Position numbers and translations under genes: made by a program. The notes under the pieces are model-generated. The model saw only the letters and a program-made list of their open reading frames with translations. It ran no database searches and was not told where the DNA came from. This document shows, in pieces, positions 3,638-28,937 of a stretch of DNA of 64,000 nucleotides. This stretch comes from an uncultured Clostridia bacterium (GTDB lineage: Bacteria > Bacillota > Clostridia > Christensenellales > UBA1242), in the NCBI GenBank assembly GCA_944377145.1, contig CALWEH010000007.1, positions 91,099 to 155,098 of the forward strand, written 5' to 3'. The first letter of the stretch is position 1, and each line of letters starts with the position of its first letter.

Positions 3638-4201
3638 ATGTTTATATTGATTATTGTAACTGCAGTAACTGTATTAATAGCTTTAATTGCTGTAAAAATA
3701 ATTAAAGCTATGTTAAAAGCTGAAAAAGAAAGTAATAAACAACAAACTAATAAGCAAGAGAGTGAAAATAATAATTTAAATACACCAGAATTAGATATTG
3801 ATAAGCCTATAGTAGAAGATTCTAGTTCTAATATAGATACGAGTGTAGATACGAATTCTCCTGAGATTTCAAAAGAAGATTGGGAAGAATTTAATGCAAA
3901 AATGAGAGAGTTCGATTCTTTAATGGCAGATGGCGGATTTACAGATCATGAAGATGAAGAGTTTTTTGATTATAGCAAACATTTAAGAAATAGAAAAAAT
4001 AATGTTAAACCTCCTGTTCAAATGGATTTAGAAGGAGATTTGGCAGATAATTTTGTATATGAGCCTAGTGCTCCAGAATTAAGCTATTTAAATACTCATA
4101 GGCAAAGGAATATTAAGAAATCTACAAAAACATCACTTAATAACTTGCCAGATGAAATTAAAGTGCTTATGATTAGCAATTTATTTGATAAAAAGTTTTA
4201 A
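3638..4201 (+). CDS. Hypothetical membrane-anchored acidic protein (occupies the yqfB position)
   Basis: ORF with one N-terminal TM helix followed by a low-complexity acidic region. It starts 4 nt after the floA stop. Confidence 0.5.
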   Translation: MFILIIVTAVTVLIALIAVKIIKAMLKAEKESNKQQTNKQESENNNLNTPELDIDKPIVEDSSSNIDTSVDTNSPEISKEDWEEFNAKMREFDSLMADGGFTDHEDEEFFDYSKHLRNRKNNVKPPVQMDLEGDLADNFVYEPSAPELSYLNTHRQRNIKKSTKTSLNNLPDEIKVLMISNLFDKKF

Positions 4202-8944: not shown

Positions 8945-11584
8945 ATGAAAAAATTTGTTTACTTGTTTAGTGAGGGTAATGCTCAAATGAGAGAACTTCT
9001 TGGCGGTAAAGGTGCTAATCTTGCTGAAATGACTAAAATTGGTTTGCCAGTTCCTCAAGGCTTTACAATCTCTACTGAAGCGTGTACACAATACTATGAA
9101 GATGGCAGACAAATTAATCCTGAAATTCAAGCTGAAATTTTAGCTAATATTGAAAAAATGGAAGCTATAACAGGTAAAAAATTTGGCGATAAAGAAAATC
9201 CTCTTCTAGTTTCTGTTCGTTCAGGTGCTCGTGCTTCAATGCCTGGTATGATGGATACTATTCTAAATTTAGGTTTAAATGAAGATGTAGTAGAAGTTAT
9301 AGCTAAAAAATCTGGAAATCCAAGATGGGCATGGGATTGTTATAGAAGATTTATCCAAATGTTTAGTGATGTTGTAATGGAAGTTGGTAAGAAGTATTTT
9401 GAAAAACTTATCGACCAAATGAAAGAGAAAAAGGGAGTAGAGTTTGATACTGAATTGACAGCAGATGATTTGAAAGAACTTGCTCGTCAGTTTAAAGCTG
9501 AATATAAAAATCAACTTGGAAAAGATTTCCCTTCTGACCCTAAGGAACAATTATTTGAAGCTATTAAAGCTGTATTCCGTTCATGGGATAACCCAAGAGC
9601 AAATATTTATCGTATGGATCATGATATACCATACAGTTGGGGAACAGCAGTTAATGTTCAAATGATGGCTTTTGGAAATATGGGAGATACATCTGGAACA
9701 GGAGTGGCTTTCACTCGTAATCCTGCTACAGGAGAAAAAGGTTTAATGGGAGAATTCTTAATGAATGCCCAGGGTGAAGACGTTGTTGCTGGAGTGCGTA
9801 CTCCAATGCCTATTCAAAAAATGGCTGAAATTATGCCAGAAGTTTACACTCAATTCCAAGATATTTGTAATACACTTGAAACTCATTACAGAGATATGCA
9901 AGATATGGAATTTACTATTGAAAATAAAAAGTTGTATATGTTGCAAACTCGTAATGGAAAGCGTACTGCAGCTGCCGCAATTAGAATTGCTTGCGATTTG
10001 ATTGATGAAGGAATGATAACTGAAGAAGAAGCTTTAATGCAAATTGATGCTAAAACTTTAGATATGTTGTTGCACCCTCAATTTGATGCAGAAAATTTAA
10101 AAATTGCTAATAAGAATAACTTGATAGGTAAAGGTATAGCTGCCAGCCCTGGAGCTGCTGCAGGAACTATAGTATTTACAGCTGAAGATGCAGTAATTCA
10201 TGGAAAAAGAGGAGAAAAAGTAGTTCTTGTTCGTTTGGAAACTAGCCCAGAAGATATTGAAGGAATGAAATATGCTCAAGGTATTTTAACTGTTCGTGGA
10301 GGTCAAACTTCTCATGCTGCAGTAGTAGCTCGTGGAATGGGAACTTGCTGTGTATCAGGTTGTGGCGATATTAAAATGAATGAAGAAAATAAATGCTTTA
10401 CTCTTGCAGGAAAAACATATCATGAGGGAGATGCTATTTCTCTTGATGGATCTACAGGAAATATTTATGATGGTTTAATAAAAACTGTTCCAGCTGATCC
10501 TAATAGTGGATATTTTGGAAGAATTATGAAGCTAGCTGATAAATATCGTAAATTGGAAGTTAGAACTAATGCAGATACTCCAGTTGATGCAAAGCGTGCT
10601 GTTGAGCTAGGTGCTCAAGGAATTGGCTTATGCAGAACTGAACACATGTTCTTTGATCCAGATAGAATTGGAGCATTCCGTGAGATGATTTGCTCAGATT
10701 CAGTTGAAGAACGTCAAACAGCTCTTGCTAAAATTGAACCAATGCAACAAGCTGATTTTGAAGGTTTAATGGAAGCTTTGCAAGGAAATCCTGTTACAAT
10801 TCGTTTCTTGGATCCACCTTTGCATGAATTTGTTCCTACTGAAGAAGCGGATATAGAGGCTTTAGCTAAGGCTAAAAATAAGTCTGTAGCTCAAATTAAG
10901 CAATATATTACAGATTTACACGAATCTAATCCTATGATGGGTCATAGAGGTTGCCGTTTAGCTGTTACATATCCTGAAATTGCTGTTATGCAAACTAGAG
11001 CAGTAATTAAAGCTGCAATTAATGTTCAAAAACGTCACCCTGATTGGAAAGTTGTTCCTGAAATAATGATTCCTTTAGTAGGGGAAGTGAAAGAACTTGC
11101 TTTTGTTAAAAAGATTGTGGTTGAAACTGCTGACGAATTAATTAAATCTAGTGGAATTGACTTACATTATGAAGTTGGAACAATGATTGAAATTCCTCGT
11201 GCAGCACTTACTGCAGATGAAATAGCAAAAGAAGCAGAATTCTTCTGTTTTGGAACAAATGATTTAACTCAAATGACATTTGGATTTAGCCGTGACGATG
11301 CTGGAAAATTCTTGCCATCATATTATACAAATAAAATTTATGAGAGTGATCCTTTTGCTCGTTTGGATACTACAGGTGTAGGAAAACTTATGGAAATGGC
11401 TGTTAAATTAGGAAGAACTACTAGACCTAATATTCATTGCGGAATTTGTGGAGAGCATGGAGGAGACCCTTCAAGTATAGAATTTTGCCATAAAATTGGG
11501 CTTAATTATGTATCTTGCTCACCATTCCGTGTGCCAATAGCAAGACTTGCAGCTGCTCAAGCGGCAATTAAAGATAAAAAATAA
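8945..11584 (+). CDS. ppdK: Pyruvate, phosphate dikinase
   Basis: GGKGANLAEM, the phospho-His region GGQTSHAAVVARGMG, and GICGEHGGDP. ATG 8945 has RBS AAAGGAGA; the ORF-track start at 8894 was rejected. Confidence 0.95.
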   Translation: MKKFVYLFSEGNAQMRELLGGKGANLAEMTKIGLPVPQGFTISTEACTQYYEDGRQINPEIQAEILANIEKMEAITGKKFGDKENPLLVSVRSGARASMPGMMDTILNLGLNEDVVEVIAKKSGNPRWAWDCYRRFIQMFSDVVMEVGKKYFEKLIDQMKEKKGVEFDTELTADDLKELARQFKAEYKNQLGKDFPSDPKEQLFEAIKAVFRSWDNPRANIYRMDHDIPYSWGTAVNVQMMAFGNMGDTSGTGVAFTRNPATGEKGLMGEFLMNAQGEDVVAGVRTPMPIQKMAEIMPEVYTQFQDICNTLETHYRDMQDMEFTIENKKLYMLQTRNGKRTAAAAIRIACDLIDEGMITEEEALMQIDAKTLDMLLHPQFDAENLKIANKNNLIGKGIAASPGAAAGTIVFTAEDAVIHGKRGEKVVLVRLETSPEDIEGMKYAQGILTVRGGQTSHAAVVARGMGTCCVSGCGDIKMNEENKCFTLAGKTYHEGDAISLDGSTGNIYDGLIKTVPADPNSGYFGRIMKLADKYRKLEVRTNADTPVDAKRAVELGAQGIGLCRTEHMFFDPDRIGAFREMICSDSVEERQTALAKIEPMQQADFEGLMEALQGNPVTIRFLDPPLHEFVPTEEADIEALAKAKNKSVAQIKQYITDLHESNPMMGHRGCRLAVTYPEIAVMQTRAVIKAAINVQKRHPDWKVVPEIMIPLVGEVKELAFVKKIVVETADELIKSSGIDLHYEVGTMIEIPRAALTADEIAKEAEFFCFGTNDLTQMTFGFSRDDAGKFLPSYYTNKIYESDPFARLDTTGVGKLMEMAVKLGRTTRPNIHCGICGEHGGDPSSIEFCHKIGLNYVSCSPFRVPIARLAAAQAAIKDKK

Positions 11585-25955: not shown

Positions 25956-25957
25956 AA

Positions 25958-26158
25958 TTATTGACCTCTAGAATGACGAATTATTTTTTCAAGTAAAGCT
26001 ACAGCAAAATACATTCCAGCTGCTAGTGTGCAAAGAATTACAACACTTGTCATAACAAGGTCAAGGTTAAATACTTGCCCTCCATATATTAGCAGATATC
26101 CTATACCAGCTTTACAAGCTAAATATTCACCCATTATAGAGCCAATCCAAGTCAACAC
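25958..26158 (-). pseudogene. 5'-truncated duplicate of the 3' end of the ABC permease gene (last ~63 codons)
   Basis: 25958-26149 aligns without gaps to 28128-28319 (offset 2170). An in-frame TGA lies immediately upstream. No RBS, and the rest of the gene is absent. Confidence 0.9.
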
Positions 26159-26383
26159 TCAATAAGTCGCTTTTCAGAACCACAACATACAGCCATAAAT
26201 CAAACAATTAAAGCACAATATGTAGTATATTGCCACACAAAAGCGACAAATTGATAGGTTGTCATTAAGCCAATTTGACTTTTTATAGTGATGAGTTAGC
26301 GAAAAAGTGGATTTTTTTTAGAGTAAAATTTTCAAGAAAAAAGTATGTTTTTTATATAAAATGATACACTTTTTAAAAATATG

Positions 26384-26392
26384 TGTTATAAT
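26384..26392 (+). promoter_or_regulatory. Candidate extended -10 promoter P1 (TGtTATAAT)
   Basis: TGTTATAAT at 26384-26392 with a weak -35. It would produce an mRNA that includes the AGGAG RBS and the leader ORF. Confidence 0.4.
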
Positions 26393-26428
26393 AATATTGT
26401 CGAAAAATAAAAAAGTAGTTAAAAAGGT

Positions 26429-26457
26429 TTGACAGGGTAATAGGAGTTTGGGATAAT
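26429..26457 (+). promoter_or_regulatory. Near-consensus sigma-A promoter P2 (TTGACA-N17-GATAAT with TGg extension)
   Basis: TTGACA at 26429-26434, a 17-nt spacer ending in TGG, and GATAAT at 26452-26457. The predicted start is about 26463-26465, at the first repeat units. Confidence 0.55.
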
Positions 26458-26581
26458 GTTTACAAACAAACAAACAAACAAACAAACAAACAAACAAACA
26501 AACAAGGCTAATTACGCCTTAAATCTTTTTAACGCAATAAATATAAATTTAACACTAAACAATATGGTTGGACTTGTTTAG
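26456..26581 (+). CDS. Putative 41-aa leader peptide containing the tetranucleotide repeat (MF(TNKQ)3TNK ANYALNLFNAININLTLNNMVGLV)
   Basis: AGGAG at 26442-26446 lies 9 nt before ATG 26456. The ORF runs through the repeat and the terminator's 5' arm and loop, and stops at TAG 26579-26581 inside the 3' arm. It is mutually exclusive with a start from P2. Confidence 0.3.
   Translation: MFTNKQTNKQTNKQTNKANYALNLFNAININLTLNNMVGLV
26462..26505 (+). repeat. Perfect tetranucleotide microsatellite (ACAA)11, equivalently (CAAA)10 plus CAA
   Basis: Counted directly: 44 nt, no interruption, G- and T-free on the + strand. Confidence 0.98.
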
Positions 26582-26590
26582 TGTTTTTTT
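26551..26590 (+). terminator. Strong intrinsic terminator between the repeat unit and the lipoprotein gene
   Basis: Perfect 11-bp stem AACACTAAACA (26551-26561) / TGTTTAGTGTT (26575-26585), a 13-nt loop, followed by a T-run. Confidence 0.8.
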
Positions 26591-26637
26591 GTATTTAAAA
26601 TCAAGATTTAAGATAAAATAAATAAAAGGAGAAAAGA

Positions 26638-28077
26638 ATGAAAAAGAAATTATTAAGTTTTATTTTTGCAATTTGTTTGATTATTCCTGCTATGTTTATG
26701 CTAAGTGCTTGCACAAAAGAAGATGAAAGGTATTTTGAAGTTAAGTATAACTTGAATGGAGGAATTAATAGCGAACAAAATATAACAACTATAAAAGAAG
26801 ATGAAGATTTTATTTTAAGCGAACCAACAAGAGAGGGGTTTGTATTTGATGGTTGGTATGAATCAAAAACATTTGATGGTAATGCAGTAATACAGATTGA
26901 TGATATTGAAACAAATGTTGAATTGTTTGCGAAATGGTCACTTCCACAAAACACTAACAACGAATATATAATTTCAAATGTCGATACTTTGATATATTTG
27001 AAAGACAATAAAGATTTGTGGGATAAAAACTTTTCCCTTTCCAATTCTATTGATTTGGGTGGAATAATATGGGAAGGAATAGGAGATAGTTATTATCAAG
27101 GTTCTATGTATAATAAAGGATTTTCCGGAACATTTAAAGGAAATGGTTACACAATTTCAAATTTTAAATTAGAAATAAAATCATATTCACCATTTGTAAT
27201 GGAACATTATTTAAACAATAGGTGTGGGTTCTTTAATTATATAGACGGGGGAAAGGTTTCAGGCTTAAATCTATTTAATGTTAACATAAAAGGAAATTAT
27301 CAATTTGGTAGATTTAATGATTTCTGGGAAGGTGTTGTTATAATTGGTTGTTTGGCTGGATATTGTGATGGGATTGTAGAAAATTGTGATGTTATTGCTA
27401 GTGAAATTGATTTAAACATATATTCTGATATATATAATAATTTCTCGATAGGTGGTTTAATAGGTGGTGCTACTGTTGAAGGTAACTCAATTAAAAACTG
27501 TAAAGCATATTGTGATATAAATATAGATATTGCATTACCAGGCGGATATTCAACAAGTAATATGGACTGTGCAGGACTAATTGGAGGAACGAATTCTTCT
27601 GATGGTACTATATCCAATTGTTGTTTTGTTGGAGATATTGTTTGTAACCAATATAGTGCATCAAATAATACTGAAATGCATGTTGCAGGATTGGTCGCCA
27701 AATCATGGAGTATAATGTTTGAAAATTGTTTTGCAATATCAAATATTTCAGTAGTGGCAAATAGTTATTCCAAAACATATGTTGGTGGAATAAATGCAAA
27801 CGGAAGCTCTGAAAATAGTGATAGATTAAATAATTGTTTTTCTAAGATGATGGTTGATTATAGAGGGGCTGAGGAGATTTTATATAATCTACAGATTGAA
27901 GAAGAAATAAATGATTATTCGTCAAACTACTATGTAGATGATGATAGTTTATTTATTATAAATGGTGTGGTTTATAAATCAGAGATAGAAGAACTTACAT
28001 CATATACAACAATTAAAAATAATCTTAAAACAATTTGGGAAGAAAGTGGCTGGAACTGGCACGAATATCCATATTAA
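26638..28077 (+). CDS. Surface lipoprotein with a Listeria-Bacteroides (Flg_new) repeat and GLUG-like repeats
   Basis: Signal peptide with lipobox MFMLSAC. YNLNGG..LSEPTREGFVFDGWY..FAKW matches the Listeria-Bacteroides repeat. Reiterated GGLIGG / AGLIGG / AGLVA motifs resemble GLUG. RBS GGAG lies 6 nt before the ATG. Confidence 0.8.
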   Translation: MKKKLLSFIFAICLIIPAMFMLSACTKEDERYFEVKYNLNGGINSEQNITTIKEDEDFILSEPTREGFVFDGWYESKTFDGNAVIQIDDIETNVELFAKWSLPQNTNNEYIISNVDTLIYLKDNKDLWDKNFSLSNSIDLGGIIWEGIGDSYYQGSMYNKGFSGTFKGNGYTISNFKLEIKSYSPFVMEHYLNNRCGFFNYIDGGKVSGLNLFNVNIKGNYQFGRFNDFWEGVVIIGCLAGYCDGIVENCDVIASEIDLNIYSDIYNNFSIGGLIGGATVEGNSIKNCKAYCDINIDIALPGGYSTSNMDCAGLIGGTNSSDGTISNCCFVGDIVCNQYSASNNTEMHVAGLVAKSWSIMFENCFAISNISVVANSYSKTYVGGINANGSSENSDRLNNCFSKMMVDYRGAEEILYNLQIEEEINDYSSNYYVDDDSLFIINGVVYKSEIEELTSYTTIKNNLKTIWEESGWNWHEYPY

Positions 28078-28091
28078 CATTTAAATAAAAT

Positions 28092-28120
28092 AAAAAGAGA
28101 GCTCTAAACTCTCTTTTTTT
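28092..28120. terminator. Bidirectional terminator between the lipoprotein gene and the intact permease gene
   Basis: A-run-AGAGAG-loop-CTCTCT-T7. Confidence 0.7.
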
Positions 28121-28127
28121 GTATATA

Positions 28128-28937
28128 TCATTGACCGCGGGATTTGCGGATGAATTTTTCAAGTAAAGCTACAGCAAAATACATTCCAGCTGCTAGTGTG
28201 CAAAGAATTACAACACTTGTCATAACAAGGTCAAGGTTAAATACTTGCCCACCATAGATTAGCAGATATCCTATACCAGCTTTACAAGCTAAATATTCAC
28301 CCATTATAGAGCCAATCCAGCTTAAACCTACATTAACTTTTAAAGTAGATATTAAATCAGGAATACTTGCAGGTAAAACTACTTTGAAAAATATTTGAAA
28401 ACGATTTGCACCAAGTGATTTTAACAAATTAATAAGATTTTTATCAGTATTTAAAAATGCTGTTAATACATTTAGTGTTGTTACTATCACAACAATTAAT
28501 ATTGCCATGGTTATAATAGCTTTACTTCCAACACCCATCCAAATTATAATAATTGGACCAAGTGCAATTTTAGGCAAGCTATTAAGAGTAACTATAAAAG
28601 GTTCTAAATATTTTCTTAAATATTCGCTTAACCATAATACAATAGCTAAAGCTATTCCTATTCCTGTAGCCAAAGCAAAAGCATATAAAGTTTCTTTTAA
28701 AGTTATAAATGCATGCATAAATAATTCTCCAGTAGAATACAACTGTTTAAGAGTATCCCAAATTCTGCTAGGAGAGGAGAAAAAGAATACATCTATAAAT
28801 CCTGTTTTTGCTCCAACTTCCCATATTACAAAAAATAGAATAAGAGTAATTATCTGTAATATTATTATGCTTGATGTTTTAAGTCTGTTTATAGTTAAGA
28901 ATTTCTTATGTTCTGCAGAATAATTATTTTTTTTCAT
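28128..28937 (-). CDS. ABC transporter permease (NitT/TauT family, BPD_transp_1)
   Basis: Six TM segments and an EAA-like loop region. I prefer the start at MKKNNY (28937), which overlaps the ATPase stop; the ORF-track start at 29000 was rejected. Confidence 0.85.
   Translation of the reverse strand: MKKNNYSAEHKKFLTINRLKTSSIIILQIITLILFFVIWEVGAKTGFIDVFFFSSPSRIWDTLKQLYSTGELFMHAFITLKETLYAFALATGIGIALAIVLWLSEYLRKYLEPFIVTLNSLPKIALGPIIIIWMGVGSKAIITMAILIVVIVTTLNVLTAFLNTDKNLINLLKSLGANRFQIFFKVVLPASIPDLISTLKVNVGLSWIGSIMGEYLACKAGIGYLLIYGGQVFNLDLVMTSVVILCTLAAGMYFAVALLEKFIRKSRGQ

Follow-up and report, generated by a model that had tools for sequence, protein, structure and literature searches.

Anatomy of the locus

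The DNA considered here is a stretch of 64,000 nucleotides (hereafter the window) from contig CALWEH010000007.1 of an uncultured Clostridia bacterium (assembly GCA_944377145.1), and the element in question is a perfect (ACAA)11 microsatellite that precedes a gene for a surface lipoprotein. On the 5′ side of the locus lie genes for MurA-like, FtsQ, FtsA and FtsZ proteins, followed by a bidirectional terminator, and on the 3′ side, on the opposite strand, lie the genes of an ABC transporter (permease, ATPase and NMT1-type binding protein). The lineage-specific segment of ~2 kb that lies between ftsZ and the transporter holds both a short leader open reading frame (ORF) and the lipoprotein gene. 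The signals of the leader follow one another in the order AGGAG, 9 nt, ATG, 3 nt, repeat tract, intrinsic terminator, 47 nt, and then the Shine-Dalgarno (SD) sequence and ATG of the lipoprotein gene (Table 1). A first-pass annotation, made by a model from the DNA letters, had placed the tract beside a surface-protein gene in a repeat-poor housekeeping region of a Clostridia-like genome; the flanking genes, the lipoprotein signal peptide and the nearest relatives (Candidatus Onthoplasma, Christensenellales) bear out each part of that description.

Table 1. Sequence features in and around the (ACAA)n leader; positions are those of the window and n is the number of repeat units.
Feature	Positions	Strand	Details	Basis
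Left copy of 193-nt direct repeat	25957–26149	−	Duplicated 3′ fragment of ABC-permease gene	94% identity to right copy
P1, candidate upstream promoter	26384–26392	+	Perfect extended −10 TGTTATAAT, weak −35	Motif match
P2, best promoter match	26429–26457	+	TTGACA, 17 nt, (TG)gGATAAT	11/12, extended −10 TG, best in 3 kb
SD-like AGGAG	26442–26446	+	9 nt before leader ATG	Sequence
Leader ORF	26456–26581	+	41 codons, MF(TNKQ)3TNKANYALNLFNAININLTLNNMVGLV*	Called by gene callers in all assemblies
(ACAA)11 perfect tract, mutable element	26462–26505	+	14 units in second lineage	Sequence, Tandem Repeats Finder, contig comparison
Alternative leader stops	26509–26522	+	TAA 26509–26511 (n = 0 mod 3); TAA 26520–26522 (n = 1 mod 3)	In silico unit changes
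Predicted intrinsic terminator/attenuator	26551–26590	+	12-bp stem (26551–26562 with 26574–26585), 11-nt loop, T7 at 26584–26590	Fold
Putative controlled gene, 479-aa orphan surface lipoprotein	26638–28077	+	SD AAGGAG 26626–26631	Pfam, homology, structure model
Predicted terminator closing the lipoprotein transcription unit	28092–28118	+		Fold
Right copy of 193-nt direct repeat	28127–28319			Same comparison as left copy

A genuine and singular ACAA tract

Direct reading of the plus strand gives an uninterrupted run of 11 ACAA units over 44 nt, and Tandem Repeats Finder returns the same interval (period 4, 11.0 copies, 100% matches) with a score of 88, the highest in the window. Searching with an ACAA 16-mer at up to two mismatches yielded eight overlapping matches, all of them within the tract, compared with 0.22 expected, and none of 100 shuffles reached eight. 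The first-pass annotation had seen nothing comparable elsewhere in the window, and indeed, the tract aside, the 64 kb contain no microsatellite of at least 16 nt and no long homopolymer. Perfect tetranucleotide tracts of 11–14 units are absent outside this locus from ~170 kb of sequence, made up of the window and ~110 kb of related genomes. The unit length of four is not a multiple of three, and the tract is fully pure in both lineages in which it occurs.

An assembly artefact had been named as a possible explanation. The tract was confirmed by direct reading in five distinct ENA contigs from two studies (L001/L002/L003/L006 and L025), and the exact 41-amino-acid leader product, which needs 11 units, was found on ten contigs. 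Logan contigs end 30 nt into the tract, a break that reflects a k=31 assembler meeting a 44-nt repeat. Because the independent assemblies from two studies agree, the tract is genuine and an artefact is excluded.

The tract starts 5 nt after the −10 hexamer of promoter match P2 and 70 nt after that of P1, is predicted to be transcribed from either, and remains unpaired throughout in the predicted leader fold. Its 3′ end lies 132 nt 5′ of the lipoprotein ATG, with stops in all frames and the terminator between. On the minus strand over the tract there is only a 59-codon TTG-start ORF (26318–26497), and the nearest minus-strand coding sequence is a 66-codon permease fragment (25958–26158).

Frame-dependent stops and the leader terminator

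The leader ORF spans the tract, and its TAG stop (26579–26581) falls within the 3′ arm of the terminator hairpin. The dependence of the stop position on unit number was derived by rebuilding the leader in silico with 6–16 units. Where n = 2 mod 3 (8, 11 or 14 units), the leader ORF has 37–45 codons and ends at the TAG in the hairpin 3′ arm; the other two classes end short of the hairpin, by 39 nt at the 26509 stop (n = 0 mod 3) and by 28 nt at the 26520 stop (n = 1 mod 3). Both alternative stops fall in a weak 5-bp hairpin (26504–26520; −5.4 kcal/mol, z = −2.4). The statement of the first-pass annotation that each unit change shifts any overlapping frame applies to the 41-codon leader ORF alone, in which the stop moves relative to the terminator; the lipoprotein ORF begins beyond the tract.

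The terminator hairpin has a predicted stability of −11.5 kcal/mol (z = −3.7; z = −4.0 for the whole leader fold) and matches in strength the terminator at the end of the lipoprotein gene (−9.8 kcal/mol). Promoter-like sites are absent from the plus strand between the start of the tract region and the lipoprotein ATG (26458–26637), which suggests that the lipoprotein gene must rely on read-through of the hairpin and that the hairpin would act as an attenuator. The predicted pairing probability of the terminator is 0.999 for 0–20 units from either start site, and since it is constant an equilibrium RNA switch set by repeat number was rejected. A UUGU-rich site at 27618, within the lipoprotein ORF, was considered as a long-range pairing partner of the tract and rejected as a chance match (20/28 compared with a background of 19/28 elsewhere).

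Two alleles in two lineages

The public data searched contain two alleles, one of 11 units in a single clone and one of 14 units in a single diverged lineage at 98.7% identity (lineage B), so that the unit count, which the first-pass annotation had proposed comparing between strains, is not invariant. The ten 11-unit contigs match the window at 100.000% identity over as much as 11 kb and represent one clone sampled many times; constancy of the count among them is hardly informative for that reason. Lineage B (contig L011; lipoprotein variant P0001) has 14 perfect units and a leader ORF of 45 codons, and two other ENA contigs were grouped with it by a shared 45-amino-acid neighbour. Exactly 12 nt separate the alleles, which share the frame that reaches the terminator.

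No other change separates the lineages from the tract to the lipoprotein gene, and positions 26340–26428 are identical in both. In the P2 spacer lineage B carries three changes that lengthen it from 17 to 18 nt, and TTGACA, AGGAG and GATAAT/ATG are intact. The entire collection holds two lipoprotein sequence variants and hence only two lineages are available; assemblies, moreover, mask within-sample variation in unit number. An exact look-up of ten predicted leader peptides for other unit numbers gave no match in a cluster collection that omits such small peptides, and the locus was not found in JGI metagenomes.

Further upstream, positions 26150–26335 (3470–3700 of L011) are the fastest-diverging part of the locus, at ~8% compared with 1.3% overall. 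L011 has a 32-nt indel here that adds one more copy of AAAGTCGCTTTT, a motif also present at 26165–26176, with an inverted copy, AAAAGCGAC, at 26240–26248. Structured RNA in this 180-nt upstream region is unsupported (z = −0.7).

A lineage-specific surface lipoprotein

The lipoprotein carries a signal peptide, MKKKLLSFIFAICLIIPAMFMLSAC, that ends in the lipobox LSAC (…MLSAC), and a List_Bact_rpt domain assigned by Pfam at residues 33–99. It is a near-orphan: among ~15 billion proteins there are its two sequence variants and otherwise only distant, domain-level matches to the GLUG family. An AlphaFold model (pLDDT 66) predicts a right-handed β-helix core of GLUG type, for which the best PDB match is 3n6z, a Bacteroides "putative IgA1 protease" (E = 1.9e-6), and the next are streptococcal IgA1-protease β-helices (7uvk, 6xja). 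The modelled core resembles the non-catalytic β-helix of IgA1 proteases and, as the 479 residues include no protease domain, the protein may function as an adhesin or as a decoy-like protein of the surface. Both lineages have an intact gene, with six synonymous and five non-synonymous changes (pN/pS ~0.2), a ratio by which this lineage-specific gene is under purifying selection. These properties mark the orphan β-helix lipoprotein as a probable host- or phage-exposed antigen of the lineage.

Tracts upstream of other surface-protein genes, for which the first-pass annotation had recommended a search of related genomes, did not come to light: the nearest lipoprotein homologues (P0003 and P0004) have no repeats upstream, and ten Onthoplasma-related ftsZ loci have neither microsatellites nor an insert of this kind. 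A family-wide feature was rejected on the same grounds.

A phase-variable leader-peptide attenuator as the favoured reading

We tentatively favor a mechanism of the type described for the Streptococcus gallolyticus pil1 locus, in which the tract, as part of the leader ORF, would heritably and reversibly set read-through of the terminator ahead of the lipoprotein gene; we regard this phase-variable leader-peptide attenuator as a credible possibility and claim no more for it than that. A transcript starting 5′ of 26442 would carry AGGAG and, after 9 nt, the AUG at 26456, with (ACAA)n beginning 3 nt further on. On a transcript with n = 2 mod 3 a ribosome would translate 37–45 codons up to the UAG in the 3′ arm of the hairpin (26551–26585, followed by U7), and a ribosome that trails the polymerase this far would cover the 5′ arm and loop, block hairpin formation and allow transcription to enter the lipoprotein gene (ON). 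A tract longer or shorter by one unit, a change that we infer to be frequent in a repeat of this kind, would instead place the stop at 26509 (39 nt before the hairpin) or at 26520 (28 nt before it), so that the ribosome would leave, the terminator would form and only basal read-through would persist (OFF or low).

Several observations argue for this reading. All of its parts stand in the right order and at the right spacing, with the long frame stopping in the hairpin and the two short frames well before it, and the only two natural alleles, 12 nt apart, both keep the read-through frame. The hairpin equals a bona fide terminator in strength, and the gene behind it lacks a promoter of its own. 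The repeat unit is not divisible by three, is pure in both lineages and forms the only simple sequence repeat (SSR) in the 64 kb and in ~110 kb of relatives. The gene that would be controlled is intact, confined to the lineage and under purifying selection, and it encodes a surface lipoprotein, a product that such switches typically target. The mechanism is known to work in Firmicutes, in Streptococcus itself and after transfer to Lactococcus.

In S. gallolyticus the pil1 and pil3 loci (Danne et al. 2014, PMC3894217) consist of a 38-codon leader ORF with 22 GCAGA repeats, a stem-loop terminator and then the pilus genes. Expression is low when the leader stop precedes the hairpin by 28 nt or more (39 and 49 nt in strain UCN34) and high when it lies in the hairpin or adjoins it, because the ribosome then keeps the hairpin from forming (PMC3894217). 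Proof of that mechanism came from mutants (start codon, triple stop, terminator deletion) and from chloramphenicol, and it is functional in Lactococcus as well (PMC3894217). The locus in the window shares with pil1/pil3 a short leader ORF with ribosome-binding site and ATG (38 codons in pil1, 41 here), a tandem repeat whose unit is not divisible by three, an intrinsic stem-loop terminator followed by one or more surface-structure genes, a Firmicutes host, and a reading frame that places the leader stop either at least 28 nt before the hairpin or inside it.

The differences between the two systems are also clear. The repeat is ACAA in 11–14 units here, compared with GCAGA in 13–26 units, and a single lipoprotein gene takes the place of the sortase-pilus operon. 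The hairpin in the window is weaker (−11.5 compared with −18.7 and −28.2 kcal/mol) and closer to the gene (47 nt compared with ~130 nt), and its assembled alleles carry the frame predicted to be ON, in contrast to the low-expression frame of wild-type UCN34. The loci are not homologous in sequence, and in the window the leader start codon falls inside the best promoter match, which makes the required upstream start putative. The window thus appears to reproduce every sequence-level feature of the pil1 design with unrelated sequence. In the literature searched, the combination of a repeat in a leader peptide with a terminator was reported only for the S. gallolyticus pili.

Conflicting evidence and alternative explanations

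A number of observations weigh against the attenuator, and the main conflict concerns the start of the transcript. The leader ATG sits in the −10 box of P2 (GATAATG) and the expected P2 start lies at ~26462–26466, within the first repeat unit, so P2 transcripts would lack both the ATG and the SD sequence. The attenuator consequently requires a start further upstream, for which the weaker P1 is a candidate with a predicted start near 26399, 5′ of the leader ORF; its motif, TGTTATAAT, occurs 15 times on the plus strand of the window, often within genes, which makes P1 plausible and not specific. Furthermore, most genes of the window that bear GGAG have it 5–7 nt from the start codon, so that the 9-nt spacing of the leader is usable but atypical, and an open stretch of 24 codons 3′ of the tract has, by a rough estimate, a ~10% chance per frame at 28% GC. 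The alleles also speak for less than they might: only two are known, a frame-preserving difference between them has a 1-in-3 chance under neutrality, no OFF-frame allele occurs in the public collections searched, and high mutability is putative, all ten contigs with 11 units being identical clones. Comparative support is lacking too, for no homologous leader was found in other species, either in related genomes or beside the nearest lipoprotein homologues.

One alternative is a neutral microsatellite that arose by replication slippage where constraint is weak, between genes of a segment rearranged not long ago, with no regulatory role and an accidental geometry. Consistent with neutrality, the tract is unique to the lineage and has no counterpart 5′ of the nearest homologous genes or in related genomes, there are two alleles only, with a constant 11 units in the ten clonal contigs, and the flank at 26150–26335 is the fastest-diverging part of the locus. 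It is difficult to reconcile with the absence of other perfect tetranucleotide tracts of 11–14 units from the ~170 kb of window and relatives, with the purity kept in both lineages, and with the position of the tract exactly between start signals and a terminator before a surface-protein gene, a geometry that matches an experimentally proven switch. On balance we consider the neutral account unlikely.

In a different account P2 starts transcription in the first unit, the RNA begins with (ACAA)n, unstructured and free of G, and the short ORF arises by chance. Expression would then vary by degrees with unit number, through mRNA level or stability, Rho loading or recruitment of ribosomes or S1 by ACA motifs, and would not be switched on and off. 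P2 is the best promoter match in the region, with an extended −10, and sites that score as well (at least 11/12) favor the coding strand of the window, with 17 there compared with seven on the other strand, mostly just 5′ of genes; both P2 hexamers are kept in lineage B despite the three spacer changes, and the tract is predicted to be fully unpaired. Precedents exist in the uspA2 AGAT(n) repeat, described below (PMC7302503), and in ACA motifs and ACAA repeats, which are described as translation-enhancing, S1-binding elements (PMC3879156, with Tzareva et al. 1994 cited there). Those enhancers resemble the present leader in being ACA-rich and unstructured; the known ones lie near the SD sequence, within ~45 nt, whereas the tract lies 132 nt and two hairpins upstream of the lipoprotein start signals, far for an enhancer. 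An untranslated leader, moreover, reduces to coincidence the AGGAG and the ATG that begins 6 nt before the tract, the frame-specific stop in the terminator arm and the three-unit difference between alleles, and unit number has no effect on predicted folding. We give this account appreciable weight, though it too seems rather unlikely.

P2 and the terminator would also delimit a stand-alone small RNA of ~125 nt whose (ACAA)n tail binds a protein (S1, Rho or a KH-domain protein) or UUGU-rich targets, with the lipoprotein gene expressed by leak-through only. A strong promoter match and a terminator ~125 nt apart, with an unstructured repeat at the 5′ end, are what such an RNA would present. Against it stand the absence of an Rfam family match and of conservation outside the species, the failure of any UUGU-rich complement to stand out in the window (the best, at 20/28, compares with a background of 19/28), and the lack of a separate promoter for the lipoprotein gene, which makes the RNA more simply the leader of that gene. 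We judge a stand-alone RNA to be very improbable. A known RNA family at the tract was rejected: no Rfam family reached its gathering score anywhere in the 64-kb window (no tRNA, rRNA or riboswitch), and only chance-level matches occur around the tract.

P2 at its position and the geometry of leader ORF and terminator are each unlikely by chance (of order 1e-3 or less, by rough estimates), and for that reason both may be real, which would mean two classes of transcript. One previously undescribed arrangement would have two layers: P2 either makes untranslatable, terminated RNAs of ~125 nt headed by (ACAA)n, or serves as a sigma-dependent pause site that synchronises ribosome and polymerase, and the weaker upstream promoter makes translatable leaders under the Pil1-type switch. 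This is a long shot. If it were true, the repeat would act as an SSR-tuned riboregulator in a reduced-genome lineage of gut Clostridia, with a length that fixes the leader-peptide frame and, at the same time, the valency of a 5′ RNA tail rich in A and C. Speculatively, the promoter-like element at 26429–26458, in which GATAAT and ATG overlap, could also be a site of sigma-dependent pausing for transcripts that arrive from upstream.

Relation to known phase-variable and leader-controlled genes

Good documentation of slipped-strand phase variation comes from a small number of mucosal pathogens; the known switches of gut Firmicutes are mostly invertible promoters. Like the contingency loci of Haemophilus and Neisseria (the lic1, mod and hgp ORFs, and promoter spacers), the locus in the window combines a pure tetranucleotide tract with a surface product and length polymorphism between strains. 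It differs from them in that the tract lies outside both the structural ORF and the −35/−10 spacer, and any effect on frame would fall on the leader peptide and not on the product; the classical in-ORF and promoter-spacer mechanisms are inapplicable for this reason. A contingency locus of the classical sort, with a repeat that alters either the reading frame of the surface protein itself or the −35/−10 spacing, has in its favor only the general association of tetranucleotide tracts with surface-protein genes. It is refuted by an anatomy in which the tract starts 5 nt after the −10 and ends 132 nt before the lipoprotein ATG, just as an artefact is refuted by the independent assemblies that reproduce the tract, and we accord the pair virtually no probability. 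The proposal of the first-pass annotation that the tract marks a contingency locus beside a surface-protein gene therefore survives in part, the locus being probably of contingency type although the Haemophilus and Neisseria mechanisms do not apply. Judged by its sequence, it is probably a contingency-type leader switch and, if the attenuator is the right explanation, a further, non-homologous case of a rare known design.

The leader ORF of Escherichia coli pyrBI runs through its terminator, and translation into the hairpin prevents termination. In pyrBI and in trp-type leaders (the latter discussed in PMC3894217), as in the attenuator favored here, translation of the leader into the terminator hairpin would prevent termination; those leaders sense metabolites through polymerase pausing or ribosome stalling, whereas here the input would be heritable repeat number. 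The AGAT(n) repeat in the 5′ untranslated region of Moraxella catarrhalis uspA2 has 13–18 units, lies 132 bp 5′ of the ORF and has threefold graded effects (Attia & Hansen 2006, as summarised in PMC7302503). The two loci are alike in having a tetranucleotide repeat of similar length 132 bp before a surface-protein ORF, in a region that is transcribed in uspA2 and predicted to be so here, with a count that varies between strains. They differ in that the uspA2 effect is graded and at transcript level, with no leader ORF or terminator logic described, and its host is Gram-negative.

If the attenuator were borne out, the occurrence of the same logic at a non-homologous locus of an uncultured Christensenellales-like commensal would suggest convergent evolution of a compact design. 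It would also supply a template with which to search metagenome-assembled genomes (MAGs) for contingency loci, namely a repeat, a short ORF, a terminator and a surface-protein gene in succession.

Genomic setting and ACAA tracts elsewhere

FtsZ of the window is 75–79% identical to its best matches among GTDB species representatives, which are Candidatus Onthoplasma (Clostridia, Christensenellales) and MAGs labelled 'Clostridia bacterium'; these MAGs (L014–L022) come from chicken, roe deer and human-type faecal samples. At that identity, the species of the window may be absent from the representatives reached by the scan. The window has ~28% GC and a strong, uniformly positive GC skew, with nearly all long ORFs on the plus strand, and is consistent with a leading-strand stretch of a small AT-rich genome. 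Onthoplasma relatives have neither the transporter nor the lipoprotein gene after ftsZ.

The ~2 kb segment is bracketed by the pair of 193-nt direct repeats, which are 94% identical overall and 98.8% identical over a 165-nt core. Immediately behind the ftsZ terminator, the left copy forms a gene fragment of 66 codons that translates as the C-terminus of the permease. In appearance the region suggests either a Campbell-type (single-crossover) insertion or an old duplication. A mobile-element origin of the segment was rejected, as there was no plasmid or phage match.

A generic survey of metagenomes for (ACAA)8 returned mostly eukaryote-like DNA and no recurrent link to lipoprotein genes. One unrelated, prokaryote-like metagenome contig of 45% GC (L066, reverse strand) carries (ACAA)15 at oriented positions 3780–3839, preceded by a promoter-like TTGACA-17-TACAAT and then by ATGs 19 and 10 nt before the tract. 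With 14 units these ATGs would be joined to a downstream ORF of 184 codons (213–216 codons in total), and with the assembled 15 units the frame stops after 32–35 codons; this is an in-ORF ACAA contingency tract of the classical kind, apparently in the OFF frame. A second contig, of 33% GC (L131), ends at 10112–10167 in ATGAATACTCTTA(ACAA)14, with the tract just past a start codon and after a 514-codon gene, and may be another in-ORF ACAA repeat on a contig cut at the tract.

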